NCBI GenBank assembly: GCA_000004695.1
Contig: CM000151.3
Location: 6,336,001 to 6,400,000, forward strand
Reading direction: 5' to 3'
Origin: Dictyostelium discoideum
Lineage: Eukaryota
DNA length: 64,000 bases
In this document: in pieces, positions 2,037 to 51,050 of the stretch
Layout of the letters: every line of letters begins with the position of its first letter
Numbering within the stretch: position 1 is the first letter of the stretch
The notes under the pieces: model-generated
Database searches by the model: none
What the model saw: only the letters and a program-made list of their open reading frames with translations
What the model was told of the DNA's origin: nothing
Program-made: the position numbers and the translations under genes

Positions 2037-3086
2037 GGATGATTCTGTGATTTTTTAATTTTATTTCATTTTTTAAAAATTTTGTTTTTATTTTTTTTTT
2101 TTTGATCAATTCTAGATGAAATAATATTTAAAAAAAAAACATTTTGGAAAAAAAAAAAAAAAAAAAAAAGATATATAAAAAAAAAAAAAAAAAAAAAAGA
2201 TTAAAAGTTTTTTTGTTTTCAACAATTCTAATTTTTTATTATTTATTTTTTTTTTTTTTTTTCGGATATCCATGTTACCAAGATTATAAATATAAGGGAT
2301 TCTATTTTTAATAAATATATACTCTTCTGTTAAAAAAAAAAAATACAAAAAAAAAAAAAATAAAAAAAAAATAAAAAAAAAATAAAATAAATTAAAAAAA
2401 AGAGGTTTTATTTTTAGTAACTCTAGATATATATTTATTAAAAAAAAAAAAAAAAAAAAAAAACCCAAAAAAAAAAAATTTAAAAATAAATCAATACCCT
2501 CAATTAAATTTCTAAAATAAAAATAGTTTTTTTTTTATTTTAATCACTAATAATCCTTCTTGTTCCACAAACAAAACAAATAAATGTTTTTCTATATATA
2601 TAAATAATATAGTTGTTTAGATATTGTAAAAATTAATTTTTTTATTCACATTTATTTGTAATTTATTTTTATTTTTAGTTTTTATTTGTTTATGTGTATT
2701 TCATTTGTTTTTCTTTTCAAATAATTAAATCTTTCATAACAAAATAAAATAAAAAAAACACCCCTTTTCAAAATTAGCAATCCATTGTTTTTCCTTTTAC
2801 ATTGGTTTGTCAAAAAACACAACACTCTTTTTTTAATTTTTTATCACCCAATTGTACTATTACTCATCAAATAATTCCATTTTTAATAATTTACAAATAA
2901 AATTTATAAAATATAAAAATAATAACATTAAAACAAAAAAAAAATAAACAAAGATTATTTTTTTTTTCCAAAAACTATTATTTCAAAGATTTATTTTTTT
3001 TTTTTTTGTTTTTGTTTTCCAAATAATTAATTCTTTTTTTTTTTTGTTTCCATAAAATTAATAATAGTTTTATATAAAAATTAAAA

Positions 3087-5665
<2,579 letters not shown>

Positions 5666-6029
5666 TTTTTAAAAAAAAAAAAAAAAAAAATTGCGACAAC
5701 AATGGTTGTAATAAATTTAGTAATGACATCATTTCTAAAATATTTAGAAAGGATTTCTAAGCATCTAAATTTACAATTAATATAAGTTGATTATAGAAAA
5801 ATCAATTTATATTTAAAAAAAAAAAATAATAAAAAATAAATAATAAAAAAAAAAAAAAAAAAAAAAAATTTATTTGTATGATTTATATTTGTTATAAAAT
5901 ATTATATTATTATTTTTATTATTAGATTTTTTACATTACCTGAATGAATTTTCAAACCACATGTTTGTTATTTTTTTTTTTTTAAAATATTATATGGAAT
6001 CAATTTTAGAAAAAAAAAAAACTTTTATC

Positions 6030-6064
<35 letters not shown>

Positions 6065-6810
6065 TTATTTTTTTTTTTTTTTTTTTTAAATCAAAAAATC
6101 TATTTTTAGAGTTTTTTATTAAAAACTATAAAAAGGATTCTTGTTTTAATACTAAAAATAGAGATCATTTGGATGAAAACCAGATTTTTTTTTTTTTAAA
6201 AATAAAAATTGCTCAATTTTATTTGTACCACTGCATTGATGAAAACTGTGTGAAAATTATAATTTTTCTAAACACTTATTTATTTTTTATTTTATTTTTT
6301 TTTATTTTTATTTTTATTTTTATTTTTTTTTTTTTTTCAATTAAAATTTTTTTATTGAAAAAAACCCACAGAGGGGTGGGTGGAAACAATAAAAAAAATA
6401 AAAATAAAAAAAGTGAACAACAATAACCCAATCAATTTGTAAAATAATAAATAATTTATTAATTATAATAAATTTGTATTATCATATACAACATATGTGT
6501 TAAGATGTAGAGCGAATTTAATTTTTTTTTTATATTTTATTATTATTTTCATAATAAAAACAATTTAATTTTTATTATTATTTATTTTTATTATTATTAT
6601 TTAATTTATTTTTATTTTAATTTTTATTTTTTATTTTTATTTTTATTTTTATTTTTATTTTTATTTTTTATTTTTTTTTTATTAATTTTTTTTTTATTTA
6701 TTCAATAAATTTAAATTTGATATGATAATTAGTTAATCGTAATATTATAATATTTACATATAAAAGAAAAAAAGAAAAAAATTAATTAAAATAATTGAAA
6801 AATAAAAAAA

Positions 6811-9121
6811 ATGTCATTTAACATACCCACAATTCATACAAATAACTCCAAAAACGATAATAATGATGAAAATAATAATAATAATCAACACACAGAAAAT
6901 CCATACATTTCAATAAATAATAAAATCACCCCAGAAAATAGTATCTCATCAAATCTTAATCAAATCGAGAAAGCTGTTAAAGTTGCCAATTCTCAAAACC
7001 TTGATTTAGCATTGATTGGTAATTGCTCATTTGGTGCTCTTATTGATAAGAAATCATGCATCAAATGGTGTTGCATTCCAAGATTTGATGCAGATCCAAT
7101 ATTTTGCTCATTAGTTAGAAAATCAAATGATTCAGGTAAATTTACAAATATTCTAAAAAAAAAAAAAATAAAAAAAAAAAAAAAAAATAATAATCCATTC
7201 TAACTCTATTATTTTTTTTTTATTTTTATTTATTATTACAGGTTTTTATGATGTTGTGGTTGAAAACTTTGCATTCAGTGAGCAGGTATATATAAAAAAC
7301 ACAGCGGTTTTATCAACAAAACTGTACAACACTAATGGAGGTGGTGTTGAAGTAATTGATTTTGCACCAAGATTCAATATGTTCTCTCGTCCATACAGAC
7401 CATCAATGATTATTAGAGTCATTAAGCCATTGGGCCATTGTAGAATTAAGATTAGACTAAGACCAACATTCGGGTAAATTTTTAAAAAATAACTTAATTT
7501 TCTATAATTTTTTTTTTTATAAATTATATTTCCTTTTCAAAAATATATTAACTTTTTTTTTTTCTTTTTTTTTTATATTTTTATTTAATAGTTATGGATG
7601 GGGTGCACCAGAAAAAACCAGAGGTACAAACCATATAAGATATATATTACCATCAATGGTAATGAGACTTACAACCAATGCTCCAATTTCATATATTGTT
7701 GATGAAGTTTTATTTGAAGCTGATGAAACATTATACTTTGTATTTATGGCTGATGAAAGTTTAAGAGAATCCCTTCATGATGTTACCAATACTTATTTGG
7801 ATAAAACAATTGAATATTGGCAAGAATATACTAAATCATTAGCTGTATGTAATATAATAATTTATTTTTAAAGTTTTAACAATTTTATTATTAATTTTTT
7901 TTTTTTTTTATTTTTTAAAAAAAATAGATTCCACTTGAATGGCAATCACAAGTTTTAAGAGCATGTATTACTGTAAAACTTTGCCAATTTGAAGAATCTG
8001 GTGCCATTATTGCATCATTAACAACATCAATCCCAGAAGAACCAACTAAAGAAGGTTATGATCTTAGATTTTGTTGGATTAGAGATACTTCTTATATTGT
8101 ACATACATTCAACAAACTTGGTAATACAAAGATGATGGAAGATTTCCTTACTTACATTTCAAACATTGTCTCAGGTTCATTGGAAAGAGGTGGATTCCTT
8201 CAACCAGTTTATGGTATTTCATTAGAAACAAAACTCTATGAAAAGTCAATGTATAGACTTGCAGGTTACAGAGGTCTTGGTCCTGTTAAAATTGGTACAA
8301 GAGATTATAAAACAATTCAAAATGATGTTTATGGTCAATTAATTTTAGCATCTATTCAAATGTTTTTTGATCAAAGATTAAATAAACCAGGTGATATTCA
8401 GTAGGTAATTTAATTATTTTAAAATAATAATATTGGTTACTAAATTTTTTTTTTTAAAATAAAAGTTTATTCCATAAATTAGAAGGTTTAGGTATGCAAG
8501 CATATACAAATTATAATAAACCAGATTGTGGTCCATTAGGTAAAGGTTCAATTGAAGATGGTAAAATTTATACATTTTCATCATTTATGTGTTGGACAGG
8601 TTGTGATAGATTAGCAAAGATTGCAAAGAGTTTAAAGATTCCATTACGTGCACATTTCTGGCAAGAATCTGCAAATAAAATCAAGGAAGAAATGATGGAA
8701 CGTTGCTTCAACAAGGAAAAGAATTCATTTGTATCAACTTGGGATGGAGATGATGTTGATCCTTACCTTTTATTGATTGCAGAATCTGGATTCACTAAAA
8801 TTGATGATCCAAAATTCATTGGAACCGTTGAATATTTAGAGAAAAAACTTAGAAGAGGCAAATACATTATTCAATCACCAGACAGTGTTAGTGCATCAAC
8901 TACATTCACTCTCTACTATATTTCTTGTATTGCTAAAATGGGTAGAAAAGAAGAAGCAAGAGAACTTTTTGAAAATATCCTTAATGATTGCACTCCATTG
9001 GGTTTAATTAGTCAAGATGTTAACCTTGAAACCAAAGAAATTTGGGGTAACTTTCCAAAAACAACTTCAATGGTTGGTATAATTAATGCTGCTATTTGTT
9101 TAAGTAAACCATGGGAATCTG

Positions 9122-9129
<8 letters not shown>
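6811..9129 (+). CDS. Glycoside hydrolase family 15 (glucoamylase/trehalase-like) protein, 5 exons (6811..7135, 7242..7473, 7592..7844, 7928..8400, 8466..9129)
   Basis: The reading frame is continuous across four short AT-rich introns. Donors are GTAAAT, GTAAAT, GTATGT and GTAGGT; acceptors are acag/atag/atag/aaag. The motifs GAIIASLTTSIPE and GYDLRFCWIRDTSY match the GH15 'TTSLPE' and 'WDYRYCWLRD' signatures of bacterial and archaeal glucoamylase-like enzymes. Splice phases were checked by hand. Confidence 0.6.
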
Positions 9130-9318: not shown

Positions 9319-12300
9319 TTATTTTAAACCACCTGAAGTAATAGCAATCCAAATTGGTAATATTGTAGTTTTAAATTTAATTTCAATTTCTACATGAGAA
9401 CCATTAGTTTTCTTATTTGATATAAAAGCTATTTTGTTATTTGAAATTGATACTTCATTTGAAAAGGTTGAACCATTAAATCCACTAGTGTCAAGTAAAA
9501 ATTGATATGAATTACCTTGGTATTCAACTTTGAAATTACATATTGATGTATTAATTGATATTGGGTGAGAAGACTCTACCGAAGTCCAACTTGTTCCAAA
9601 ATTTTTGTGAATATTGAGTTGAGTAGAATGAGATTTAATATTTACTGCATGCATAGCCTTAAAGAAATTAAATGATGGATTTGGTGGATCTCTAAATTTA
9701 ACTAAAGGATGTTTATTGTTAAAGAATAATTCAAAGGTTTTACCACCTTGAGGAGCACCACCAATCTTAATATTGAATAATTCCATACCACCAATCGAGT
9801 ATCTTAAAGCTGGTTCGAATGAATTAACTTTTTCATGACGTGATGTTAAATTTTGAGGTTCAATAAAGAAAAATGGAATACCACTTGGTGATCTAATCTT
9901 TAAAAGTGTTTTACTTGAATCTAATAATTTTGAATAAGATTGAAATGTGAGCTTTGAGCATTTCATTAAATCTAACTTTATTAATCTTAGTTTTGAAATT
10001 GATTCTGAAACAATTAAATTATCAACAAATGGTGGTAATGCTAATTTAACAACCGATGGACATCCTTTATAAAGTTCATTAAAATCTTCTCCTAAGATAC
10101 CACTACAACCACCTAAATCCAATACCTCTAAATCTTTACAAGTTGAAGCAATAAGTTTAACTATTAAATCTGTAAGTGTTGGTATTTCATAAAGTTTTAA
10201 TTTTCTTAACTTTGGAGTGATTAAATCTGATAATACCCATTCATTGATTCCATTTTGATTATTACCAAAATTGAGATAGGTAATATTTGATAGATTAGAT
10301 AAACTTTTCAATTTACTACAATCATTAATTTTTAATTTTCTTGAAATAAATGATTGAATATCTGGTTTAATCTTTGAAAAAACTTCAATACTATTACTAT
10401 TGATATGTTCATCGAAATAAATCTTTTCAACATTTATATTTTCAAAGTAATCTAAATCCTCTACTTCAAATTGAATATTTAAAGGAATTGTAAACTTTTC
10501 TTTTTTAATTGAGTATTTTTCTTCCAATGAATTCTTTACAATTGATCTTAATTTTGGAACAGTTCTAGAGGTTTCAAAAAATATCCATGGACTAAAATCA
10601 ATTAATGGTTTAATTTTATCAATAATTGATTCAATATTTTTACTAATACTAAATGCTTTAGTAATATGTTCTGATACTTTTTCTTTTGAAAAATTTTTAT
10701 TACTACCTTGAGTTACCAATAAAAATAATGAAATACCAATATGAGCTTTTTGATAATTTGGATCAATTTTAAATATATTACTAAATTAAAAAAAATGAAT
10801 TAGTTTTTTATAAAAATAATAATAATAATAATAAAAATAAAAATTAAAATAAAATAATTTACTTACTTATAAGCAGTTAAAACTTTAGAGTAATCAAATT
10901 TTGAATTATATTTATATAAATGATCAAAGAATTTTGCCAAAAGGTAACTTGGATATGCTTTATCTGGTGATTGTTCAATAATTTCATTTAAAACTATTTC
11001 AATTTCTTCAATTTCTTTAGGAAGAATAAATCCTTCAAACTTTAAATGTGATAGAATAGTTTTAACTCTACAAATTTTTAAAAGAAGTACTTGACTTTGA
11101 ACAACTCCAATTGTATCAAATGTAGAGAGTTTTTTGTTTGCCAACACATAGTAGAGTTGTTTCTTTGTATAATCTTGTGAAGTTTTTGCCAACAAAGTTA
11201 AAACTTTAGCCAATTGGATAACAATTTGGAAATTATTATTCATGGTGAGAATTGATTGCTCTAAACGTTCCCTTGAAATTGTTAATAGTCTATGTTTACT
11301 TGTATCACTTAAACCTGAAGCCATAGATTTATAATATAAACTCATACCATCTGCATAATCAATAACATTTAATCTAGTTGAAAGAGTTTTAATCTCTTTA
11401 ATATCTGTATCTACAAATACGAATGAATCAGAATTATTAAATTGAGAAATTGCAATTTTACTAATTACCAAACCAATTGATTTACAAAATTTTTTTAAAA
11501 TCATTTCTCTGGTTGGAAGAGTTGTCAATAAATTTTTAATAATTTCTTGTGGAGTAACTGGTAATTTTGGTGAATTTTCATTTAACTCTGGCTCTTCTTT
11601 TTCGGTATTTACATTATTGAAAATATTTTGAAATTTCTTTTCCATCTTTTCTAATATAATTTTATTCCAAATATATTCAGTTTTATCTTTATATTCATCA
11701 AATAATAAATTTAAAAATTTTAATAATAAACCTAAATTGAAATAATAATAATATTAATATTAATAATAATAAAATAAAGAGAATTAATAAATTTTATTAT
11801 ATAATAATTTAAAAATTATTAATTATTATTATGTTTTTTTTTTACTTACTTCTATATGGATAATCAGATGGTAAATGAATATTTCTCATTTCTCTTCTTA
11901 ATAATTCTCTTGCTAAACTTTTAAGTGTTCTAACTATTGCTTCAATTGTAAAGAATCTTTTATAACCAATACTTGTACAATGACTTGCAACTTCACCAAT
12001 ATATCTAATATTAATACCTTCAGCATGAAGTAATTTTGAAACATCTGTAATCTTGTCAGAAATATTTGATAGTAAATCTTGTAAAAAATTTGTTTTTAAA
12101 CCAATTTCATCTCTAGTTTGAATATCTTTAGAGAATTTTGGAATGATATTATTCATTAAATCATCATATGCCTCTTGAACTTCCACATTATGTTTATTTG
12201 AATCAATTGTTGACATTGGCGAAAATGCATCACTACATAATGGTTTTTGATATTTTCTAACCAATTCTAGTCTTAATAGTTTATAAAGATATGAACCACG

Positions 12301-13860
12301 ATGTTTTGGTGGTTCTGGTGGTGATAATCTTGCGAAATCTAATAAATAGAAACGATTATCACCTCCTAAATGACCCTCAATATCAATTGGCCCACTGATT
12401 GATTTAATATCACCACTGATATCTTCTACAAAATGTTGTTTTAAATTGATAACTTTTGAAGCATTTAAAAAGAGATTATTGAAAATATTATTACTTGTGT
12501 GTACAGTTTGACCAGCGTCACAACTACCATAAATTAAACTTTTCTTTGAAATTGGTAATAATGACATTGCCATCAACCGGAAGCCTCTATAATCGATAAA
12601 TGCCATCAATGGTACATGTAAACCTTTGACACCACAATTTAAAAATGAAGCACAACCATTTAATTCATGTGCTGCTGTTTTCATTGCATTCTCATCATTG
12701 CCATATAATCCAAATGCTTCATTCTCCAACGCAAATTTGAATAATATACCTTGAACGATATACTTTTCACCACCAGCAATACCTCCGACACTAACTGGTT
12801 TAATTGTTTTCAATTCATTGGCCAAGAAATTCTCAGAGATAATAATTCTACCATAACTTTCAGCTGCATAAACAAAATCATGCTCTAATGAACTAAGTCT
12901 TTCAAATTTCTCTAAACAATCATCCATTTCTAATAATCTTTGAAATTCTGAACTCCAATAATATAATGCTATATTATCCATCTTTTTCCCAGTAATTGAA
13001 CTACCGCTACTACCACTGCTAAAACTTGAAGAAGCATTTGATACATTTAAATTATCATTTGTAAGGAATTTTGGATGTGAATAAGATGAATATGGATTGG
13101 ATTTAATATTATCATCTAAATATCCACTTTGTAATACTTGTAATCTTTGTCCAGATGGTGATGATGATGATGATGATGATAATGTTGTTGATATATCACT
13201 AATATTATTGTTATTTTCATTTTTTGGTAGTTCTAAAACTTTATTGTATCTTACTAATGATTCTAATACTAATAAATCATTTTCACTAATATCATGCATA
13301 AAATAAGGCTTTTTTAAATCAATATCATGATTATCTTCATTTCCACCACTATTAGTAGTTTTACTACCATAAATTGAATATGGATCACTACTTTGACTAT
13401 CTTGAACATTACAAATTCCATAAATTGATTCACTTTGATCGCTACCTTTATAACTATAAAAATTACTTTCACTTGATGAAAAGTCTTGTGTAGAATTTGA
13501 AGTGTTATCATATCTTGCTTTATTTGATGAAAATGAATCTGATATAGTTGGTGAAGCATTATCATATCTATTATTTGATTGTGTTGTTAAAGAAGAGGAT
13601 GATGAAACTGATTCTGATTTAATATCGTCTTTATTAAAATTATCATATCTTGATGATGAAGAAGATGATGATGATTGAACAATATTTGGTGAAGCATTAT
13701 CATATCTATTATTTGGTTGTTGTTGTTGTGTTATTGGCTGCACATTATCATATTTTTGTCTTAAAATATCTGGTGAGACCTTTAATCTTAATAATCTTTG
13801 CGAAAGGGCATTTTCTTTTTCTCCCAAGTATGAAAAAACTTCATTATAATCATAGCCCAT
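9319..13860 (-). CDS. CLU-domain plus Cys-containing LRR protein, paralog B, 3 exons (13860..11850, 11731..10867, 10780..9319), about 1445 aa
   Basis: The three track ORFs (11842..13860, 10863..11645, 9319..10719) join through GTAAGT donors and ..tttag acceptors. The joined protein is collinear with the intronless paralog at 14255..19144. For example, DYPYRS-LLLKFLNLLFDEY..EKMEKKFQNIF aligns with DYPYRNLLLNFLNLIFDDY..EKMEKKFQNIF, and TAYN-NIFKIDPNYQKAHIGIS aligns with TIFTIDPNYQKAHIGIS. The central region (DYRGFRLMAMSLLPI..YGSCDAGQTV..GGDNRFYLLDFARLSPPEPP) resembles the CLU domain. The C-terminus has LDLGGCSGILGEDFNELYKGCPS LRR_cc-type repeats. Exon lengths sum to 4338 nt, which is divisible by 3. 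Confidence 0.6.
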
Positions 13861-14254
13861 TTTGTTTGGATTTGTTTTTTTTTTTTTTTAGTAATAATAC
13901 AGAAAAAAAGATTTTTTTTTTTTTTTTTTGTGTTGTGTAAAAAAATGATTTATTGATAACAAAAAAAAAAAAAAACTAATCTCTTTAATAGTTTTTTTTT
14001 TCTTTTTTTTTTTTTCTATTTGCTATTTTTTAAAATTAATTGAAACAATGGAAATAAAAAAGAAAAAACATCATTTTGAAATATCTTTTTTTTTTTTTTT
14101 TTTTTGATTTTTTTTTTTTTTTTTTAGATATTTTTTAAAAACGTTGTTTTGGTTGCCTTTCTGTGAAAAAAGTAAATTTTATTTTTAATTTTTTTTAATT
14201 TTTTTTTTTTTTTTTTAACCAATTTTAATTTTAATTTTATTTTTAAAAATTTTA

Positions 14255-17200
14255 TTAATTTTGGATACCTGTGGCAATTGCAAAGAAAATTGCAAATGGA
14301 GAAATGATTTTACTAGTTTTAATATCAGCATCAACACTTAATCTCATAGTTTTTGCATTTGAAACGGTTAAGACAGCATTTAAATTTGATCCAATTGAAA
14401 CATTTGAAGTGAAAGTAATACCTTGAAGACCAGATTGAGCGATATTTTTAAATTGATAAGAGATACCTTGAGATTCGATTTTAGTTGCAAAAGTTGGTGA
14501 ACTTGACATTGGTAAAGTTTGAGTGGATTCAATAGTTCTCCAATTTCCATTCATAGTGATATCATTGTAAACTGTTAATTTTGTAATTGGTTTATCAATG
14601 ATATTGACATGAGCAACTTTAAAGAAACCTGAAGAATTGAGTAAAGCATTTGGTGGATTTCTAAATCTTACCAATGGATTCTTATTATTATAAAATAGTT
14701 CAAAATTTCTACCTGAAGAAACCATTATACCATGACCAATCTTCAAATAGAATAATTCCATACCACCAACTGAATATCTTAAACATGGTTCATTTGGAGC
14801 TACTTTAGCATGACGAGCTGTAATATATTGTTGGTCAAGATAGAACATTGGTACACCAATTGGATTTCTAACTTTTTTGAGTGTACTACAAATATCTAAT
14901 GCTTTTGAGTATGAATGATGAGTAACTTTTGAACATTTAATTAAATCCAATCTAACCAATGGTAAAGTACCATTTAAAATCTCTGAAACACCATCATTCT
15001 CTATGAATGGTGGTAATGCTAATTTAGCAATTGATGGACAACCTTTATAAAGTTCATTAAAATCTTCTCCTAAAATACCACTACAACCACCTAAATCCAA
15101 TACTTCTAATTCTTTACAAGTTGATGAAATTAATTTAACTGTTTTATCTGTAATATCTGGTAATTCATATAATTTTAATTTCTTTAATATTGGTGTAATT
15201 AAATTTTCAATCATTTCATCTTTAACACCTTTTGAAAAACCTAAATTTAATTTTATAATATTTCTAAATTTACTTAAACTTTCAAAAATTTTAAATTCAT
15301 TTTCATTATTATTATTATTTTCCTCTTCTTTTACTTCTTTTTCTTCTTGATTATTTTCTTCTTCTTCTTCTTTTTCTTCCTCTTTTTCTTCTTCTTCTTC
15401 TTTAATTTTACTAAATTTACTAAATCTAATTATAATTGATTGTGAATTTGATTGAATTTTTGAGAAAACTTCAATATTTTTAGCATTTGAATGATCATCA
15501 AAATAAATCTTTTCTAATTTAATATTTTCAAAATAATATTGATCATTAAATTCAAAATGAAGATCATGTGGAATTAAAAGTTTATTATTATTTTTTTCAA
15601 CTTTTAATTCTAATGCACTCTTTACCATTGATCTAACTTTTGGAATTGATCTTGATGATTCAAAAACTACCCATGGATTAAAATCAACTAATGGTTTAAT
15701 TTTGTTTACAATTGATTCAATATTACCAACTTTGAATGCTTTTACTATATGATCAGAAACTTTTTCAGGTGAAAATAGTTTATGAAGATGTTGAGTTTTT
15801 AATAAAAATATTGAAATACCAATATGAGCTTTTTGATAATTTGGATCAATTGTGAAAATCGTATCATAAACATCGGTAATCTTTGAATAGTCATACTCTG
15901 CTGAACTACCTTTTGAACAAATGAAATAGAATTTTGCTAAAAGATAATTTGGATAAGCTTTATTTGGTGATAGTTCTATTGTATCCTTTATGATTTGTTC
16001 AATTTTTTCAATTTTTTCTGCTTGGAAGTATTGAATTCTTAAATGTGATAATGAAATTTTAATTCTTTGAATTCTTGAAATTAATAAAAGATTTTGATCA
16101 ATTCTTAATTGTTCCAATTGAGAAACTGTATTTTCAGCCAATGTGAATAGTTCTCTTTTAATATTATCATTATCAGTGGTTTTAGCTAATAAACGAATAA
16201 CATTTGCCAATTGAAACATTGCATTATGATTGGTACTCATTGAATGAATTGATTCCTCTAAACGATCCTTTGAAATTGTTAATAGTCTGTTCTTACTTTT
16301 ACTATTTAAACCAGTTGCCATTGATTTATAATATAAACTCATACCATCTGCATAATCAATGATATTTAATCTTGAAACTAATGTATTGATTGCTTTGATA
16401 TCTGGATCAACGAATACGAATGATGATGACTTTGAAAATTGTTCAAGTGAAACTTTGCTAAGTACAAGACCAATTGATTTACAGAATTTAGTTAAAATCT
16501 TTGATCTTGTATATGGACTTAATAATAAATCTTTAATCAACTCTTGAGGTGAATATTTGAAATTTTGAGGATCCTCAACAAAATCATTTGGAATTGAATT
16601 GAATCTACTAAATGATTCTTTATCTTTATAGGAATCAACGAAAGGATTTATAAATTTCTCTTCGAAATGGGTTGCTTTATTGACGAAAATATTTTGAAAT
16701 TTCTTTTCCATCTTTTCAAAAACAATTTTTGACCAAAATAATTCAGTTTTACCTTTATAATCATCAAATATTAAATTTAAGAAATTTAATAATAAATTTC
16801 TATATGGATAATCAGATGGTAAATGAGTTTTCTTCATTTCTCTTCTTAATAATTCTCTTGCTAAACTTTTAAGTGTTCTAACTATTGCTTCAATTGTAAA
16901 GAATCTTTTATAACCAATACTTGTACAATGACTTGCAACTTCACCAATATATCTAACATTAATACCTTCAGCATGAAGTAACTTTGAAATATCTTTAATT
17001 TTATTATTAGCTTGTCTTAGAATTTCAACTGATGAATTTGTTTGGAAACAAATTTCATCTCTAGTTTGAATAAATTTAGAGAATTTTGGAATGATATTAT
17101 TGATTAAATCATCATATGCTTCTTGAACTTCTACATTATGCATATCAATATCAATACTTGACATTGGCGAAAATGCATCACTACATAATGGTTTTTGATA

Positions 17201-18489
17201 TTTTCTAACCAATTCTAGTCTTAATAGTTTATAAAGATATGAACCACGATGTTTTGGTGGTTCTGGTGGTGATAATCTTGCGAAATCTAATAAATAGAAA
17301 CGATTATCACTTCCTAAATGACCCTCAATATCAATTGGCCCACTGATTGATTTAATATCACCACTGATATCTTGAACAAAATGTGGCTTTAAATTTACAA
17401 TTTTGGCAGCATTTGAAAAGAGATTATTGAAAATATTATTACTTGTGTGTACAGTTTGACCAGCGTCACAACTACCATAAATTAAACTTTTCTTTGAAAT
17501 TGGTAATAATGACATTGCCATCAACCGGAAGCCTCTATAATCGATAAATGCCATCAATGGTACATGTAAACCTTTGACACCACAGTTTAAAAATGATGTA
17601 CAACCATTTAACTCATGTGCTGCTGTTTTCATTGCATTCTCGTCATTACCATATAATCCAAATGTTTCACTCTCCAATGCAAATTTGAATAATATACCTT
17701 GAACGATATACTTTTCACCACCAGCAATACCTCCGACACTAACTGGTTTAATTGTTTTCAATTCATTTGATAAGAAATTCTCAGAGATAATAATTCTACC
17801 ATAACTTTCAGCTGCATAAACAAAATCGTGCTCTAATGAACTAAGTCTTTCAAATTTCTCTAAACAATCATCCATTTCTAATAATCTTTGAAATTCTGAA
17901 TTCCATGAATATAATGAAATACTTTCCATTTTTTTTGTACTTAATGAACTTGCTGATGATTGAGTAATTGTTCTACCACTACCACTACTTTCTGATAAAG
18001 CTTTATCAGTAAGGAATTTTGGATGTGAATAAGACGATATAAATGCATTATTACTACTAATATATGGATTTGAATTAAAATTATTCTCTTCTTCATATCC
18101 ACTTAATGTTAATTTTGGTCTTGATGATGTTCCACAAGTATCATCATCATCTTTGTCATCTTCATCTTCTTCAAATTCACCTATTTTTGATTTAGATTGA
18201 ACTAATGATTCTAATAATAATAAATCACTTTCACTAATATCACGTTCACTATATGCTCTTTTCTTCTTTTCATTACCACTACTTGTAGTTAAATCAGATT
18301 GTTCATAATCTTCGTCTTCTTCATCTTCACTATATGGTTCATCATTTCCATTAGCATTGTAAGCACTATAACTTGATGAGCCACCATAACTTGAAATATT
18401 ATAATTACTTGAACCACCACCAACTAAACTACCACCATATTGACTATAATTACCACCAGCAACCATATTACCACCATATTGACTATAAC

Positions 18490-18524
<35 letters not shown>

Positions 18525-19144
18525 CCTTGTTCACTATATTGTGAAAAAGCATTATATGAATTATTGTTGTTATTTTCAACATCACCAGACACTAATGGTG
18601 CATTATCATATCTTGAAGCTGTTGATGAAAATGATGATGTTAAATTATTTCTTCCTGTTAATTCTTCATTTTGATTTGTTGTAGATTTTGACTTTTCATC
18701 ATTTGAATTTTCATATCCTGATTTACTTGGAGTAGATTCATCTTCATTTTCATATGATGATTTAATTGGAGTTTGTGAATTTGTTGTTGTGGTTGTTGTC
18801 TCTACTACATTCTCTGATTTATTTTGATCATTTTCAACTTCAGTGTTAGCGACTGTTGTATTTGTATTTGTTGTTGTAGTTGTTGTTGTTGTTGTTGTTG
18901 GAGCATTAGTTGGTGAATTTATTTCATTTACTAATTTATTTTCTTCTCCCTCACTTTTTATTGGTTGTTGTTGTTTTGAGGCTTCATCAACTACTGTTGT
19001 TGTTGTTGTTGCTGTAGGCTGTTGAGTTGGATTTGGTTTGGGTGCTACTTTTGCTGGTCTTTTAAACCTTGCTGGTCTTTGAGAAAGAGCTCTTTCTTTT
19101 TCACCCCAGTATGAAAAAATTTCACTAAAATTTTTATTTGTCAT
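14255..19144 (-). CDS. CLU-domain plus Cys-containing LRR protein, paralog A (intronless, 1629 aa)
   Basis: This is a single ORF. The N-terminus has a conserved FSYWGEKERALSQR motif. Low-complexity T/N/S/E-rich tracts follow. Then come a CLU-like domain (ISLYSWNSEFQRLLEMDD..FIDYRGFRLMAMSLLPI..GSDNRFYLLDFARLSPPEPP) and an alpha-helical region. The C-terminal module is Cys-containing LRR (LDLGGCSGILGEDFNELYKGCPSIAKL). Confidence 0.7.
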
Positions 19145-20045: not shown

Positions 20046-20222
20046 ATGGATAATTTATTAGTTTCATATAATGACAGCGATGAAAGTGATGTTGAAGAGA
20101 ATATAGAATCTTATAAAAATGAATTAGAATCAAGAGCAAGCACAATTTTAAAAGAATCAATTGAAAATCACGAAATTTCAATAAATGAAAATGGTGAAAT
20201 AACAATTGAATTAAATAAACAC

Positions 20223-20312
<90 letters not shown>

Positions 20313-21627
20313 GTAAATGAAATTAATAATGTAAATAGTAAAAAAAGAAATATAGATTCACTTTATAAAGATGACTCTGAAACAACCACCACCACAACAA
20401 CAACAAATAATGAAGAAAATAATACAAAAATTGGAAAGATTGGAGATATTTGTAATGTTTGTACTATAGAGAAATCAAAATATAAATGTCCAGGATGTTC
20501 AATTTTATTTTGTTCATTAATATGTTCAAATAAACATAAAATCGATACAAAATGTACAGGTGTTAGAAAAGATAATCATTTTATACCTTTAAATAAATTT
20601 AAAGATTCTGATATTGTAAATGGTAAATATAGATATAAATTTAAATTTTAAAAATTCTATTAAAATATATTAATGATATTATTTTATTTTTTTTAATTCA
20701 TTCCTATAGATTTTAACTTTTTAGATAAAATTAATAGAGTAAATGAAAATGGTAAAGCAATTGTTGCAAATTCTTTCATTAAATTTAAATCTAAACATTT
20801 ACAACAATTTGCATTTAGAAAAAATATAAACCTTTATATCATGCCAAAAGAAATGTCAAGACATAAAGAAAATACAACTTCTTTTAAAAAACCGTTTGTA
20901 TTAAATTCACTACAAATATTTATATATATATAAAAAAGTAAACAATCCATTAATTAATTTATTATTTTTTTTTTAAAAATTTAGTAAAAATTTATTACTT
21001 TGGAGAATTGAATGGTTATTTTTAGATGATGATTTTAAATGGTCAGATCCATCAATTCAAGATTCAATGATAATGAATGACCTTTTACAAAAACATATTG
21101 ATGATCCTGTAAATATATATAACCTTAAAAATAATTTAAAAAAATTAAATTCAAATAGAGATTATAGAAATCCAAATGAAAATTTCACTGTTTTAATGAA
21201 AAGAGAAAGAGATTCTGTATGTATTATTTAATTTAATTTAATTTAATTTAATTTAATTTATTTAAAATACTTAAATATTAATTTTATAAAAATAAAAAAT
21301 AAAAAATAGAAAAATCAATACTATAGATTTGATTTAACAAAAACATTTGATGAGAATTTTCAATTTAAAGAGATAATAGAATTTCCAACATTACTAGTAT
21401 TTACAAATAATTCAAAAAATTTATCAAATTATAATATTATTTCATTGGAAGATCAATCAATCATTGAAAAACAACAACTAGAAATTATAAAAGCAAACCT
21501 TTCTTTTAAAACTAAATATGACCCAAATTTAACAAATACTGAGGACCAATCAAAAAGATTTAAACCTAATAATAACAATAATAATAATAAAAATGGTAAT
21601 AAAAAAAATGATAGATTTAAAAATAAA

Positions 21628-42494: not shown

Positions 42495-43259
42495 AGTAGT
42501 TGGTGTTATATGAGCAGTATGGTCTGAAGTGTTCCGGGATGTTTATGGTCATGAGTTTCGAGTTCCAGTTGTAGTGTTATCGTTGAATTTTATTTGGTTT
42601 CTTCTGTACCATATCGATTCCATAATGGCTCCTATAAGATTTGATGAGAATGGTGTGAGTAGTTTTCCGAGAACTTTTTCGCTCCATGGACCGCGGTAAG
42701 TGTTGTTAGAGTCTTTACAGACCTTTTGATAGATTGAGTCGATATCCTGTTTTATTGATTTGCATTCGAAGAAGATGTGCATAGACGACTCTTCTTCTTT
42801 ACATGAGTGGCAATTCTCCCCATGGTGTTTTGGAAGTGCCTTGAGTAGATACCTCCATGCTAAGTCTCTTCCTTTGATAGTTGTGATTGATCTGGCTTCT
42901 CTAAATGGTAGAATTGGGTGATTAATGTTCTTTTGAATCAGTTTTTGACCTGTTGTTGGCTGGTGTTTGTTCCATCCCTTGTATTTGATATCCATCATGT
43001 TTCTATAGATTACTTTTAATTTTTGTTTGTTTTTGTATTTGGGTTTGACTTGGTTTAGTTTGAGAGTTATTCGCTCTCTTGGGTGGTGCAACAACTTCCA
43101 GGCTTTCCAGCATTTGATGTGAATCCTTGATAGTGAGTTTTCTTTTTCCGACTTCCAGACTTCCATATGTGGAGGGCAGTTCTGGTCGTCTTTTTCTCTG
43201 AAGTATTGTTCGTATATCCATGCTTTCTGGGCATTGGATCTGGTTGCCATATTCCAGAG
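42353..43259 (-). mobile_element. TRE5-A copy, 5'-truncated within ORF2, with an internal deletion of about 185 bp near the ORF2 3' end. Poly(T) at 42455..42490 is the oligo(A) tail. Upstream (AAT/TAA)n C-module tail at 42361..42454.
   Basis: The fragment is more than 95% identical to the 3' region of the full-length TRE5-A at 44455..45560. The track ORF 42549..43250 is near-identical to ORF2 residues MATRSNAQKAWIYEQY..IWYRRNQIKFNDNTT. The 185 bp between ccagttgtg| and |gtagtgttatcg in the full copy are missing here. Homology ends at ..ccatattccagag (43259), 45 bp before tRNA-Ser. Confidence 0.7.
42549..43250 (-). pseudogene. TRE5-A ORF2 C-terminal fragment (233 aa)
   Basis: Direct protein identity to the C-terminal region of the 1182-aa ORF2 at 44617..48165. 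A different C-terminus, ..NDNTTTGTRNS*, is created by the internal deletion. Confidence 0.7.
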
Positions 43260-43304: not shown

Positions 43305-43386
43305 GACATCGTAGCAAAGTGGTCTAATGCGTCTGACTAGAAATCAGATCCCTTCGGGGGCGCAGGTTCGAACCCTGCCGATGTCG
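43305..43386 (+). tRNA. tRNA-Ser (anticodon AGA), 82 nt with a long variable arm
   Basis: The sequence is GACATCGTAGCAAAGTGGTCTAATGCGTCTGACTAGAAATCAGATCCCTTCGGGGGCGCAGGTTCGAACCCTGCCGATGTCG. The 7-bp acceptor stem is GACATCG/CGATGTC. The anticodon stem is TCTGA/TCAGA with loop CTAGAAA. The long variable arm TCCCTTCGGGGGC is typical of class II tRNAs. The T-arm is GCAGG-TTCGAAC-CCTGC. Confidence 0.8.
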
Positions 43387-44616: not shown

Positions 44617-44621
<5 letters not shown>

Positions 44622-47600
44622 AGTAGTTGGTGTTATATGAGCAGTATGGTATGAAGTGTTCCGGGATTTTTATGGTCATGAGTTTCGAGTTCCAGTTGTG
44701 GCTGAATTTTTCGAGTCTTCTTTTTATTGATGCGGTCCGATTGATTGACTCTCGGTTATCAGTGCATCTTAGTTCTTGACGTAGTTGTTTTTCTACTATC
44801 TTTCTTGTTCTATCCCATTCGGCATCTCTCGCTTTTTTTATTTTATGAATTATTTGGTTCTCTGTTATTATTGTAGTGTTATCGTTGAATTTTATTTGAT
44901 TTCTTCTGTACCATATCGATTCCATAATGGCTCCTATCAGATTTGATGAGAATGGTGTGAGTAGTTTTCCGAGAACTTTTTCGCTCCATGGACCGTGGTA
45001 AGTGTTGTTGGAGTCTTTACAGACCTTTTGATAGATTGAGTCGATATTCTGTTTTATTGATTTGCATTCGAAGAAGATGTGCATAGACGATTCTTCTTCT
45101 TTACATGAGTGGCAATTCTCCCCATGGTGTTTTGGAAGTGCCTTGAGTAGATATCTCCATGCTAAGTCTCTTCCTTTGATAGTTGTGATTGATCTGGCTT
45201 CTCTAAATGGTAGAATTGGGTGATTAATGTTCTTTTGAATCAGTTTTTGACCTGTTGTTGGCTGGTGTTTGTTCCATCCCTTGTATTTGATATCCATCAT
45301 GTTTCTATAGATTACTTTTAATTTTTGTTTGTTTTCGTATTTGGGTTTGACTTGGTTTAGTTTGAGAGTTATTCGCTCTCTTGGGTGGTGCAACAACTTC
45401 CAGGCTTTCCAGCATTTGATGTGAATCCTTGATAGTGAGTTTTCTTTTTCCGACTTCCAGACTTCCATATGTGGAGGGCAGTTCTGGTCGTCTTTTTCTC
45501 TGAGGTATTGTTCGTATATCCATGCTTTCTGGGCATTGGATCTGGTTGCCATATTCCAGAGTTCCAGGCCTCCAATTTCATAGTCTCTTCTGCTCCTTTC
45601 TTTTGAGATAGCCCACCTGTCCCCTTTGAATAACATGTTGGCATTAACGTTCTCCAGTTTCTTTATGTCATTTATTTCGTTGATGTATAGTTGGAATGTT
45701 AGTTGGGACAGCAGGTATGATTTGAGGATTGTGATTCTACCTTTTAGCGTTGATGACACGCTCGAATAGCATTTTGTGAGGTTTTCCAGTTTGTTCACCG
45801 TATCATCTACTTTGCTTATTACACCTTTGCGGTTGAAGAAAAAGCCAAGATATCTTTCTTCTTCTTTCGCCCCAATTGTCTTATATTTGGTCTTTATCTT
45901 TGGGTTTTTAGTGATGCACACACATTTATTATCGTTTATTTTTGCTGCTGTGGCTTGGCAAAATTTTATAACTTTCATATCCATTTTATCTGCGTCATCT
46001 ATGTTACTGGCTAGTGTGACTGTGTCGTCTGCATATTGTCCAATCTTCATCGAATTGTTCTGATTGAGTTTTATGCCTATTATGGTATTGTCTTTTCTTA
46101 TTGATGTTGATAAGCATTCACATACTATAGCGAAGAGAGTTGGTGAAATTGGGTCGCCCTGTTTTGTACCTCTTCCTGCTCTGAAGGATTCAGAGAGTTG
46201 TCCATTTACCATGACCCTTATGTTGGTGTTCGTTAACATGCTTAGTATTGTGTTTGTTATTTTCCGAGGGAACTTTAGATGGTTTAGAGTCCTTATTAAC
46301 GCTTTATGAGATATTGAATCGAAGGCTTTTTCGAAGTCATAAAAGGTGATTATCGTGTTTCTATCACTCTTTTCCATTGCTAAATCCAAAGCTATAATGT
46401 TGTTGTGGAGTAGCCTTCCTGGTATAAAACCGTTCTGGTACTTTGAGATTATGTTTGGCAGGATTTTTAGTATTCTATTGTTGATTATTTTTGAGTAGAT
46501 TTTGTAGTCTACGTTGAGTAACGTTATTGGTCTTCTGTTTGAGATTTCCAAGACATCCCCTTTACCTTTGTATATTGATGTAAGGATACCGTTCTTGAAT
46601 TCTGTTGGAATTTCATTGTTTAAAAAGAAGTTGAATAGTTCTGTGAGGATTGGAATTAGTTTGTGTTGGTGGATTTTATAGAATGAAGATGTTATTCCAT
46701 CTTCTCCTGGTGATTTACCTTCTGCTATCTTTTCTATTGCTAGCTTAACCTCATATTCTTCGATTCTGTCTTCCATCTCTGTTAATTTTTTTTTATCTAT
46801 TGGTGGGTTCCAGGTGCTTAGAAGTTCTGTATGTGTTTCTTGGTCGCATTCTTTCTCTTTGAAGAGTGTCTCGTAATATTTTCTGAAGCAATCTGTTATT
46901 TCTTTTTGTTCTGTTTCGATTTCTCCATTGGATGGGTTCTTTATTCTGTGAATCTGGGAGCTCGAGTCTCTTTTTTTAAGAATAGATGTAAGGAGATTTG
47001 ATGCTATTTCTTTATTGTTGATGTAGTTGATTGAGCTTTTGATCATTCTGTCTATTCTTTCTTCTTCTTGAAGTATTGTTATTTCGTTCGATATTGTTTC
47101 TTTTTCATATTTGTTTTTTGTTTTTGTGTGTTCATTTGCTAGATTTGATAGCGTTTTTTTTCTCTCTAGTATTCTTTTCTTTTCTGTTGTAATGCATTGT
47201 TTTTTTATTTTTTTTTTGAACTTAATCCAGTATTCCGTTATGTTAAGGTTTTTTCTTTTGGTTTCCTGGTAGTGGTCGATTATTTTTTCTATCTTTTTTA
47301 TTGTTTTATCTTCTTTAATTATTATTGAGTTCATTTTCCATAGGGGTGATTTGTATATTTTTGTGAAATTTGGTATTTTGAAATCCATCACTACTATGTT
47401 ATGGTCTGATTTGTTTATTTTATCTATTATCTTGTACGAGTGATTGAGTTGGTGCATCTTTGTTGATAAGAATGTTCTATCGATTAGTTTATCTTTGAAG
47501 GTTGTTTTAGTTGTTGAATTTGGTAGTATTTCGGTGAGTCCTACTTCCATCATTAGGAATTCTATTGTTTCATTTTCTGTGAATTTTCTCTTATCGGATG

Positions 47601-48048
47601 ATCCATCTTTGAACTTGATTTTTGCATATTTGTTGATGTTAAAGTCACCAGTAACTATGTCTGCCTGTTCTAGATCTTCAAGGGAAATATTGTTTGAAAA
47701 CCATCCTTTTCTTCTGTCATATGAGGCTGGTGCATAGATGCAAATTATGTTGATTTCCATATTGTTTAGAATTGCAGTAAATTTTAAGATTCTGCCTTCT
47801 TTTTCTTCCAAGTTTTTAATTTCTATTTGTTCTAGGTGATTTATTGCCATTACTCCTTTTCCTCTTGCTTCTTTTCCTTTTCCTCCTGTTGAGTAATGGT
47901 TTTTGATTTGCGCTAGATTTTGATCCTTTTTTAGATTTGTTTCTGTTAGTATTGATATATCAGGTTTTATTAGGTTAATTGTATTTTTTGTCTGATTCAT
48001 GCTTTTGATTGTTGAGCAACCTTGGCAATTCCAGGTCATTATTTTTAT

Positions 48049-48051
<3 letters not shown>
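44617..48051 (-). CDS. TRE5-A ORF2: APE endonuclease, reverse transcriptase and C-terminal Cys-His motif. The ATG is at 48051..48049; the track ORF extends to 48165 through a poly-K reading of the A-tract.
   Basis: The N-terminus MIKIMTWNCQGCSTIKS.. is an endonuclease domain. The RT motifs ..ITFYDFEKAFDSISH.. and ..QYADDTVTLA.. (YxDD) are present. The C-terminus has the CCHC-like motif HSCKEEESSMHIFFECK. Total 1182 aa as listed in the track. Confidence 0.75.
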
Positions 48052-48098
<47 letters not shown>

Positions 48099-48125
48099 TT
48101 TTTTTTTTTTTTTTTTTTTTTTTTT

Positions 48126-48157
<32 letters not shown>

Positions 48158-48163
<6 letters not shown>

Positions 48164-49522
48164 AAATGAGACAGATGGAAGTATGTCTTGGAGTACTTTG
48201 GGCAATTTGTCTCTTAGTGCTGCTTCCATTAGATCTGATTCTTCCTTTGTTATTTTAGTTGGAGTTTTGTAAGGTGTTGATATTTCTTGGTGATTAGTTG
48301 TTGGGTTTGGAGATGAGTTGGATCTTTTTCTTTTTACTGTCTCTGGGGTTGCTGGAGATTCTGGATTTTGGATAGGTGACATTGTTTGTCTTTTTTTGAT
48401 TGAGGCTAACCTTGGGGTTTCCTTCTTTTTTTGGTTATTTATTTTTTCTTCAAAAATTCTGTTCTCTTCTTCATTTTCGAACATCTTTCTTACCACTTCT
48501 AATGCTTCTTCATCTTCAGTTAACTCCATTTTCCTTTTCTCTTTGCTGTCAACACTATATGTTACTGTTATTGGTGGGACACGAAGTACTTTTCTCTTTT
48601 CAATATTGTTTATTGTGTTTGTCGTTTCTGTCGTTGTGGTTGTTGTAGTTGCTCTAATTGTTGTGGGTTTTTTATTTTCAATTTCGTTTTCCTTTACTTT
48701 TTCGTTTTTGCTCTTGTCTTTGATGTTGTCATTATTGATTTCTTTATTATTTTCTTTTCTGTTTTCTATTTTGTTTTTGTTGTTATTTTTTGATTCGCTA
48801 GTGTTTTTATGATTGGATTCTTCTTTTGATTTTATGTTTATTCTTGTGTTTTCCTTTATCTCGGGATTTGGTAGTTCCGTGATTTTTGAATTTTCTGAGA
48901 TTTCGTCTTCGATTTCCTTATTTGTTTTTCTTTGATTTTTTGTTTCTTCTGTTGTAGTGAGGAATAGTATTGTTATGTGTTTACAATGTATTAGCTGGTC
49001 TTTGTGCTCTGGACTGATAATTGAGTTGAATGAGTGTATTATCAGGTTTTCACCTAAATTATCTAATTTGATTATTTCCAGTCCTTCTTCATGCAATGTT
49101 TTTTCTACTATGTCCATTGATTTTTCCCAGTTGAATGTTTTGAAGATCTTTTTTGGTTTTATTATTGCTCTGTGAACTCCTTTTAGTACTCCGTTGAAAA
49201 CGTTAGAGTACTTGATTACTTGAGTTCTGCAGTCAGTTAGGATTTTGAATTTATTCTTACTTATTATTATCTTATCATCTCCTTGTAAATGAATTTCCAA
49301 TTCTGCTTTTAAGTTGTTGGAAATCTCATCTGGGATATTGATCATGAATTTATATTGTTTTAGTTCAATTTGAGTGTGGTATATTGCTTCGCTTATTTTA
49401 TCAAGTGTTCTGTACGTATTTTTTAAATATTTGAACTTTGTTCTGAGTTCATTTGATTTCTTGATTTTATCTGCCAATGTTTCTGTTGATTCTGTCATTA
49501 TTGTATTTGCCAATTTATTCAT
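48158..49522 (-). CDS. TRE5-A ORF1 (454 aa)
   Basis: A complete ORF. It overlaps the track ORF2 start by 8 nt and is followed by a T-rich stretch (A-rich on the element strand) of about 105 nt at 48052..48157. Confidence 0.7.
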
Positions 49523-49599: not shown

Positions 49600-49670
<71 letters not shown>

Positions 49671-49674
<4 letters not shown>

Positions 49675-50928: not shown

Positions 50929-50976
50929 TCTATTGTTCCTTAATAAATTTGTAATATGAGTTATTTTTTCATCAAA

Positions 50977-51050
50977 GGGACTATAGTTTAGTTGGATATA
51001 ACGACCGGCTACGAACCGGTAGGTCTCAGGTTCGACCCCTGATGGTCTCG
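50977..51050 (+). tRNA. tRNA-Arg (anticodon ACG)
   Basis: The sequence is GGGACTATAGTTTAGTTGGATATAACGACCGGCTACGAACCGGTAGGTCTCAGGTTCGACCCCTGATGGTCTCG. The acceptor stem GGGACTA/TGGTCTC has 2 G-U pairs. The anticodon stem is ACCGG/CCGGT with loop CTACGAA. The T-arm is TCAGG-TTCGACC-CCTGA. Confidence 0.7.

Follow-up and report, generated by a model that had tools for sequence, protein, structure and literature searches.

We analysed a 64,000-nucleotide stretch of Dictyostelium discoideum DNA (GenBank assembly GCA_000004695.1, contig CM000151.3, forward-strand positions 6,336,001 to 6,400,000), referred to below as the window, which belongs to chromosome 2 of strain AX4. Its minus strand carries two genes arranged head-to-tail in tandem, DDB_G0276089 (copy A, upstream) and cldB, DDB_G0276091 (copy B, downstream), whose products share a CLU domain. 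Comparison with related genomes showed that a block of about 1.1 kb encoding this domain has been homogenised between the two genes by interlocus gene conversion, repeatedly and independently in each species, that the rest of the pair diverges freely, and that the tract ends at the site where copy B has its first intron and copy A has none. The account as a whole, in which the cldB pair arose after the split from D. purpureum, copy A lost its introns, the CLU block was converted and the products would act as scaffolds, is given here a probability of slightly more than 0.8. The uneven similarity of the two copies is due to gene conversion, and it was overlooked in a preliminary description of this DNA.

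The region of copy B appeared on the minus strand as three open reading frames (13860..11842, 11645..10863, and 10719..9319). Joining 13860..11850, 11731..10867, and 10780..9319 gave a product of 1445 aa with a computed mass of 163.8 kDa, which is identical at every residue to XP_643282.1 (DDB_G0276091, UniProt Q75JJ2). This exact RefSeq match, together with the conserved splice sites, rules out three separate genes. The preliminary description had placed two introns in the downstream copy, after DYPYR and after ..TAY, and had read the upstream copy as a single exon; both structures hold, and the two introns were also found in copy B of three other species. Its picture of adjacent minus-strand paralogues with collinear proteins was borne out as well. 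The copies are collinear from their first residues (FSYWGEKERALSQR in A, FSYLGEKENALSQR in B) to the C-terminus, with 61% identity overall, and the other motifs it had quoted (DYRGFRLMAMSLLPI, DNRFYLLDFARLSPPEPP, EKMEKKFQNIF, and LDLGGCSGILGEDFNELYKGCPS) were all present. The amino-acid identity is far beyond chance and unevenly spread, with about 93% across the CLU block against roughly 50-60% in the other parts. The GC content of the window ranges from 11 to 34%, with poly-Asn and poly-Thr tracts in coding sequence, and the intergenic DNA has 11-19% GC. Between species, both copies are under purifying selection; in copy A, the ratio of nonsynonymous to synonymous divergence (dN/dS) is about 0.09-0.38, and the discoideum-citrinum comparison of this copy gave dN/dS values of 0.03/0.35 for the CLU block and 0.05/0.33 for its middle region. 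With orthologue ratios well below 1, both copies are functional.

Orthologous loci were fetched and the annotated proteins were mapped back onto the DNA; copy B was mapped in D. firmibasis, D. citrinum, and D. dimigraforme. The tandem pair is present in these three species, in D. cf. discoideum, and in a second D. discoideum strain. Alignment of the window with itself by blastn gave 93.4% identity over 1142 nt between the A block and the B block, and in AX4 the A-B dS was 0.115 in the block versus 0.62-0.83 in its flanks. Within the genomes of four species, the A-B dS of the CLU block was 0.12, 0.17, 0.21, and 0.17, lower than between orthologues (0.35-0.52 for A-A and 0.25-0.62 for B-B). Outside the block, the A-B dS was 0.65-1.6, with no within-species dip. 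Sites were scored as concerted when the paralogues shared a base in each of four species and that base varied between species. Such a pattern was found at 84 of 248 biallelic sites in codons 401-800 (copy A numbering), compared with 13 of 1100 outside (Fisher p = 2e-53), and paralogue-diagnostic sites numbered 21 in the block versus 264 outside. Copies A and B differed at 82-116 nt within a genome versus 93-179 nt across genomes. The block dN was 0.06-0.09 for A versus B, 0.03-0.04 among A orthologues, and 0.03-0.06 among B orthologues. Conversion was patchy, leaving paralogue-specific islands at codons ~663-668 and 701-719. In AX4, codons 741-747 of copy A (SIGYKRFF) are of the B type, which is not so in copy A of two other D. 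discoideum-complex strains or of D. citrinum, a difference that points to recent conversion from B to A. When two D. discoideum strains are compared, no part of gene A has diverged more than the block (3.9% vs ~2.1%), yet in protein it is the most conserved part. Taken as comparisons of silent sites and site patterns, these data show repeated conversion of the CLU block in each species. Interlocus gene conversion of tandem duplicates, with tracts limited by heterology, is known from globin, opsin, and other tandem families. As in those families, silent sites here are more alike between paralogues than between orthologues, conversion occurs in discrete, patchy tracts, and the process recurs across lineages; the present pair differs in that the limit of the tract is base-exact at an intron presence/absence difference left by intron loss in one copy.

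The first concerted site lies in codon 421 and the last in codon 777, and paralogue-diagnostic sites restart at codon 783, the codon split by intron 1; the edges of the block are at codons ~416-421 and 777-783. At the exon 1/intron 1 junction, the DNA identity falls from ~90-93% to 67-76% in all six genomes. The high-scoring segment pair of ~90% identity ends exactly at this junction in four of the six genomes, AX4 included, and it overruns the junction by 23-35 nt at the remaining two loci (L001 and L003, the latter from D. dimigraforme). Among orthologues, dN was 0.02-0.07 in the 48 codons after the junction versus 0.03-0.04 before it. As these 48 codons are as conserved as the CLU block, weaker constraint is not the cause of the break. 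The positions of the break show that the tract ends at the intron-1 presence/absence site, and the simplest reading is that the 84-337-nt heterology formed by the intron, present in B and not in A, would stop the extension of heteroduplex. We put forward, tentatively and at somewhat less than even odds, that intron loss in one duplicate made a base-precise conversion barrier, which locked CLU in concerted evolution across the clade and let the downstream part diverge into two scaffolds. If this is true, an intron difference between paralogues would be a switch deciding which parts of duplicated genes can diverge.

The 3′ limit might instead have other causes, with the conversion itself being real: selection for paralogue-specific residues downstream, or a boundary inherited once and frozen by divergence. 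The six genomes share one post-duplication ancestor, and the boundary possibly records one historical event. The two paralogue-specific islands persist without any indel, so selection or divergence alone can resist conversion. Against this, the position of the break agrees to the base with the exon-intron junction, and the stretches on its two sides are similarly conserved, as the dN values given above indicate. We consider such causes rather unlikely, although they form the strongest of the alternatives.

The distribution of introns was compared across the same genomes and more distant relatives. The A orthologue is an uninterrupted open reading frame in all six genomes, AX4 included, and the B orthologues of D. 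firmibasis, D. citrinum, and D. dimigraforme contain exactly two introns each. Intron 1 is found at the same position and in the same phase in the four B copies, in D. purpureum, and in Heterostelium album, and intron 2 in the four B copies and in D. purpureum. The latter species has a single gene with both introns in matching phases; T. lacteum is without intron 1 and intron 2. The A-B alignment is gap-free at both intron sites. Because the outgroups share intron position and phase, copy A has lost its introns precisely, and the comparison shows both introns to be ancestral. The preliminary description had left intron loss, intron gain, and retro-duplication side by side and had proposed dN/dS and synteny comparisons with other dictyostelids; the outgroup gene structures decided for loss in A over gain, with retro-duplication as the less likely route, and gene trees dated the duplication.

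Part of this result is already on record. Ma et al. (2015, BMC Evol Biol, PMC4683709, Additional file 1) listed position 2347 of DDB_G0276089 as a D. discoideum intron loss and scored D. purpureum, P. pallidum, and D. fasciculatum as having the intron at that position. Codon 783 begins with nucleotide 2347, so the listed position is the exact site of intron 1. The table of PMC4683709 has the nt-2347 site only and does not contain the loss of intron 2, and the intron-retaining paralogue DDB_G0276091 was not found in the supplementary files of that paper. Intron 1 of copy A is thus one of the 441 precise losses catalogued there in D. discoideum, and both introns of copy A were removed precisely. 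The authors of PMC4683709 favour recombination with reverse-transcribed mRNA and note that adjacent introns tend to go jointly, which fits the double loss in copy A; the same kind of recombination would have removed the introns here.

Two further observations concern these genes. D. purpureum (locus L004, ~12766-12855) and T. lacteum (locus L005, ~10604-10680) have a phase-1 intron in adjacent alignment columns near codon 995 of copy A. It is missing from both D. discoideum copies and was probably a further ancestral intron, the third, whose loss either preceded or followed the duplication. The annotated A model of D. dimigraforme (L003, 1310-7209, 1730 aa) includes an additional exon upstream. 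With the conserved MTNKNFSEIFSYWGEKERALSQR start at 2314, the open reading frame 2314-7209 (1631 aa) matches the other A copies collinearly, and the annotated model is probably too long.

To date the duplication, neighbour-joining trees of the CLU block, the middle region, and the C-terminal region were built separately from 16 sequences and bootstrapped. All three trees contained an A clade and a B clade (four or five species each) and placed D. purpureum outside A+B with bootstrap values of 100, 100, and 82%. This placement shows, at the level of gene trees, that the duplication took place after the split of D. purpureum and before the radiation of D. firmibasis, D. dimigraforme, D. citrinum, and D. 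discoideum. A single ancestral gene with at least two introns was thus duplicated, probably in tandem at the DNA level; the downstream copy retained both introns and the upstream copy lost both.

Copy A could alternatively be a retrocopy that never had introns, formed when the ancestral mRNA was reverse-transcribed and inserted directly upstream of its parent. Copy A is intronless in every genome that carries it, A-B homology is detectable within the coding sequence only, D. discoideum is rich in reverse transcriptases (PMC4683709), and a retroelement with a reverse transcriptase domain lies 25 kb away within the window. Retrocopies are, however, normally found at unlinked sites and without a promoter, whereas the present copies stand head-to-tail only 394 bp apart, which is a signature of unequal crossing-over. 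The copies are adjacent and their synteny is conserved, so the site is not unrelated to the parent locus, whereas an unrelated one would be expected for a retrogene. No poly(A) remnant or target-site duplication could be distinguished from the A/T-rich background; the 3′ flank of copy A is A-rich, as is all intergenic DNA here. Moreover, precise loss from resident genes is common in D. discoideum, and adjacent introns go jointly (PMC4683709). A retrocopy origin is therefore the less likely route, and we regard it as improbable.

The identity of the CLU blocks is very improbably the work of purifying selection or codon bias alone. The CLU block protein is nearly invariant across dictyostelids, and trees of the block protein still split the A and B clades, as selection alone would allow. 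Constraint at the protein level cannot, however, make the dS of paralogues within a genome lower than that of orthologues, nor can it yield the 84 sites with a species-specific base common to both paralogues. In addition, the equally conserved 48 codons past the intron site have no concerted site in any species and are without the low-dS signal in three of four species (dS 0.78-0.97; 0.23 in D. discoideum). That copy B gained its introns once the duplication had occurred, with an intronless copy A as the ancestral state, has practically no chance of being correct, because its only support is the presence/absence difference inside the window, and intron 1 occupies the same codon and phase in D. 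purpureum and Heterostelium album (it is scored in D. fasciculatum as well, PMC4683709), as does intron 2 in D. purpureum.

The product of copy B has been met before. Sugden et al. (2010, J Biol Chem, PMC2906285) described DDB_G0276091 as CldB ("Clu domain B"), a protein of 164 kDa, which was recovered together with CldA (SH2/Clu/TPR) in tandem-affinity purifications of the SH2/LRR protein LrrB. The recovery needed the SH2 domain of LrrB and was strongly raised by pervanadate (PMC2906285). In the main text of this paper, no mention of the neighbouring paralogue DDB_G0276089 was found, and our literature search found no mention of it beyond one supplementary table. Copy B is thus CldB itself and copy A its nearest paralogue; CldA, unlike CldB, possesses an SH2 domain and TPRs. 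Clu is the only domain that PMC2906285 reports for CldB, to which a predicted FBXL-type LRR region, a predicted beta-sandwich, and N-terminal YDN motifs can now be added. The published LrrB partner, whose association depends on phosphotyrosine, hence has an unstudied tandem sister that is ~93% identical to it across the Clu domain, and this identity matters for redundancy in knock-outs and for the assignment of peptides in mass spectrometry.

The CLU domain named in the preliminary description was recovered in both proteins far above the Pfam cut-off of 24 bits (Table 1), with profile positions 2-222 of 225 matched. It is followed by a match to the start of CLU-central (eIF3_p135, PF12807), which scored 28.9 and 28.5 bits in the two copies against a cut-off of 22 bits and covers only positions ~9-71 of 171 of the profile; a long region that is probably helical comes next. 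A Pfam scan of the whole proteins at E ≤ 1 detected no CLU_N in copy A or B. There was no significant TPR, the sole match being TPR_17 at E = 0.043, under the cut-off. No F-box was found in the whole proteins (Pfam, E ≤ 1) or in the middle and pre-LRR segments (E ≤ 10). The CLU core had been called catalytic-looking, but no evidence of catalysis was obtained and we reject such a role; the Clu domain's role was called unknown in PMC2906285. A sequence search of the PDB with the CLU block revealed no significant solved relative, the best match (E = 0.3) being Toxoplasma PCR10. This sub-threshold match, to chain JA of entry 9ya0 (TGME49_298010), is collinear with aa 526-548 and 720-770 of copy A and spans two hallmarks of the CLU block, namely LHVPLMAFIDYRGFRLMAMSLLP vs LQVHLMTAIDYKGFRVVVFSL-P and a helix ending in ..RTLKSLARELLRREM. 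It hints that some solved structure may already include a CLU-like domain.

The N-terminal parts of both proteins are disordered and of low complexity and carry tyrosine motifs. In copy B, five [RK]-Y-D-N motifs were observed versus 0.28 expected from shuffled sequences, and the maximum in 1000 shuffles was three. Motifs of the form [R/G/K]-Y-[D/E]-N occur in one to six copies in the N-terminus of every orthologue, where ~0.3 would be expected by shuffling, and at one Y-[DE]-N alignment site the Y, D, and N are nearly invariant across the family. The sequence pY-x-N is the classical ligand of Grb2-type SH2 domains. The conserved YDN motifs are for this reason natural candidates for phosphotyrosines that could recruit LrrB or CldA, and they may serve as docking sites in both copies. 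Most likely, the protein would work as a scaffold and not as an enzyme. Docked by N-terminal phosphotyrosines, it would use its CLU, helical, and LRR surfaces to gather partners, CldA among them, in a complex for the tuning of gene expression, and copy A would then be a diverged, partly redundant sister of CldB.

Several points weigh against the account given above. For the splicing of cldB, the grounds are canonical sites, conservation, and the RefSeq model. The duplication route (DNA-level or by retroposition) and the mechanism of intron loss are both proposals. Given neighbour-joining trees of 16 sequences, conversion at an earlier time could lend A+B a monophyletic appearance even with a duplication that predates D. 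purpureum, and in D. purpureum the distance from the gene to the end of the contig is 1.3 kb, so that a second copy may be lost or unassembled. The idea of an intron barrier depends on a positional coincidence in six related genomes, which may go back to one ancestral boundary, and such a boundary could persist through the present divergence of the downstream sequence alone. The YDN motifs are only candidate ligands of the LrrB SH2 domain, and CldB peptides from the 2010 mass-spectrometry data that lie inside the 93%-identical block may not tell A from B.

The C-terminal part of copy A was modelled with AlphaFold2 (residues 1190-1629, family alignment of 17 sequences). The model was confident (pLDDT 81.7, pTM 0.79), compared with a pLDDT of only 33 for a single-sequence version, and it consists of eight short strand/helix repeats followed by a beta-sandwich and a terminal helix. 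According to this model, the C-terminus is a cysteine-containing LRR solenoid of the Skp2/FBXL type, which in copy A is broken by an acidic disordered insert (aa ~1247-1281). The repeats are weak in sequence profiles (LRR_At5g56370, E = 0.018; LRR_4, E = 0.16), as is a precomputed match to PF25372 (LRR_FBXL15). The F-box-like LRRs of the preliminary description therefore stand as FBXL/Skp2-type repeats in the model, but no F-box accompanies them. The solenoid type is common to the FBXL receptors Skp2, FBXL2, FBXL17, and FBXL5 and to copies A and B, with a sequence identity of just 15-20%. As there is no F-box upstream of the repeats, nothing ties the protein to Skp1 or to an SCF complex, and membership of the F-box family was rejected. 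The beta-sandwich had no Pfam match and no PDB profile match. In an exhaustive phmmer search of 1.84 billion representatives, it was seen only in dictyostelid members of the family. When the last 338 aa were used in a word-indexed search for homologues, a single distant LRR protein came back; the search missed the protein's own family too and was of no useful depth.

The fusion of CLU to LRRs had been called an unusual architecture, a view that the wider family does not support. Among 54 homologues, many non-dictyostelid ones have CLU and several LRR families in precomputed Pfam annotation, e.g., those of Pelomyxa schiedti and transcriptome or metagenome entries. In a fresh scan of four homologues, CLU was followed by CLU-central in all four and C-terminal LRRs were present in three; LRR_4 matched P0023 and P0031 with E ~1e-15 to 1e-16, and P0022 has SPRY and no LRR match. 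Because this order recurs in non-dictyostelid relatives, the architecture is not unusual, and the terminal beta-sandwich alone looks dictyostelid-specific. The same order of CLU, CLU-central, and C-terminal LRRs, with significant LRR matches in Pfam, characterises the "Histidine kinase A" of Pelomyxa schiedti (P0031), P0019, and P0023. Such amoebozoan-type CLU and LRR relatives are longer (1.9-2.7 k aa) and, by sequence, without the dictyostelid C-terminal beta domain. Other relatives carry SPRY (P0022) or a ubiquitin-conjugating domain (P0021 and P0030, precomputed). Like CluA, Clu1, Clueless, and CLUH, copies A and B have CLU (PF13236), the start of CLU-central (PF12807), and then a long, presumably helical region; unlike them, they are without CLU_N or a significant TPR match and have C-terminal LRRs and a beta-sandwich instead. 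The mitochondrial role of CluA, Clu1, and CLUH has no sign of a counterpart in copies A and B; lrrB-null cells are without mitochondrial clustering (PMC2906285).

Before this analysis, the record already held the gene models and their Clu annotation, CldB with its name and its interaction, and the intron 1 loss. What is new is the polarity of intron 2, the date of the duplication, the assignment of the FBXL-type LRR and beta-sandwich, the YDN motifs, and gene conversion that is confined to one domain, independent in each lineage, and ends at the lost-intron site. These results are fresh instances of well-known phenomena. They bring the domain map of both proteins up to date (LRRs of FBXL-like type but no F-box, a beta-sandwich specific to the lineage, and candidate SH2-docking YDN motifs) and provide a clean multi-species case of domain-restricted concerted evolution with its limit at an intron presence/absence difference. 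The understanding of the CldB system or of genome evolution is unchanged by them, since earlier records covered the genes, their Clu domain, and the intron 1 loss.

Table 1. Features of the tandem CLU gene pair, in positions of the window. Codon and residue numbers refer to the copy named in each row.
Feature	Position	Strand	Basis
Copy A (DDB_G0276089), single-exon CDS, 1629 aa, 184 kDa	14255..19144	minus	ORF and 100% identity to DDB_G0276089
Copy A N-terminal low-complexity region, conserved FSYWGEKERALSQR start, 3 Y-[DE]-N motifs	17936..19144	minus	
Copy A CLU domain, aa 414-628	17261..17905	minus	Pfam PF13236, E = 1.7e-63, 214.9 bits
Conversion block in copy A, codons ~404-783, ending on the first base of codon 783	16798..17935	minus	self-blastn and site patterns
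Intron 1 loss site in copy A, within codon 783, CDS nt 2347|2348	16797..16798	minus	alignment column
Intron 2 loss site in copy A, codon 1094, phase 2	15863..15865	minus	alignment column
Copy A predicted LRR domain, ~8 repeats of 24-26 residues, FBXL/Skp2 type, aa ~1212-1426	14867..15511	minus	
Copy A predicted C-terminal beta-sandwich, aa ~1432-1609, then terminal helix	14318..14851	minus	AlphaFold2 model
A/T-rich spacer, 394 bp, from the copy A stop codon to the copy B start codon	13861..14254	minus	
Copy B (cldB, DDB_G0276091) exon 1, codons 1-670 and first base of codon 671	11850..13860	minus	junction reading, RefSeq match
Copy B N-terminal low-complexity region, FSYLGEKENALSQR start, 5 [RK]-Y-D-N motifs	12988..13860	minus	
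Copy B CLU domain, aa 302-516	12313..12957	minus	Pfam PF13236, E = 1.1e-60, 205.6 bits
Conversion block in copy B, ending on the last base of exon 1	11850..12987	minus	self-blastn
cldB intron 1, 118 nt, GTAAGT..TTTAG, phase 1, after DYPYR	11732..11849	minus	junction reading
cldB exon 2	10867..11731	minus	junction reading
cldB intron 2, 86 nt, GTAAGT..TTTAG, phase 2, after ..TAY	10781..10866	minus	junction reading
cldB exon 3, including the stop codon	9319..10780	minus	junction reading
Copy B probable LRR region (exon 3)	~9892..10425	minus	alignment to the copy A model
Copy B probable C-terminal beta domain (exon 3)	~9376..9876	minus	alignment to the copy A model

The neighbourhood of the pair was also inspected. 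On the plus strand, the exons of a gene for a glycoside hydrolase of family 15 (GH15) lie at 8132-9129, convergent with cldB, and this gene is conserved downstream of copy B in all five other D. discoideum-clade genomes examined. Upstream of copy A, the plus strand has a 201-aa open reading frame (20046-20651) with a run of ~30 Asn and a C-terminal HIT-type zinc finger (PF04438, E = 3e-9). Farther away, two large minus-strand frames of 1182 aa and 454 aa occupy 44617-49522 together with 42569-43259, and the larger one contains RVT_1 (E = 5e-37). A 691-nt segment of this larger frame is repeated at 42569-43259 with 98.7% identity, beside tRNA-Ser(AGA) at 43305-43386. The element at 44617-49522 resembles a non-LTR retroelement of the kind that targets tRNA genes, and the repeat would be a second, partial copy of it. 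Directly upstream of tRNA-Arg(ACG) at 50977-51050, positions 49654-50929 form a tandem array of ~198-nt units that share 99.4-99.7% identity. The minus strand also contains a second tandem paralogue pair (57550-58704 and 60810-61964), with 384-aa open reading frames of 78-79% protein identity and 85.8% DNA identity over ~900 nt, both of which encode a tyrosine-kinase-like kinase domain (PK_Tyr_Ser-Thr, E ~1e-50).

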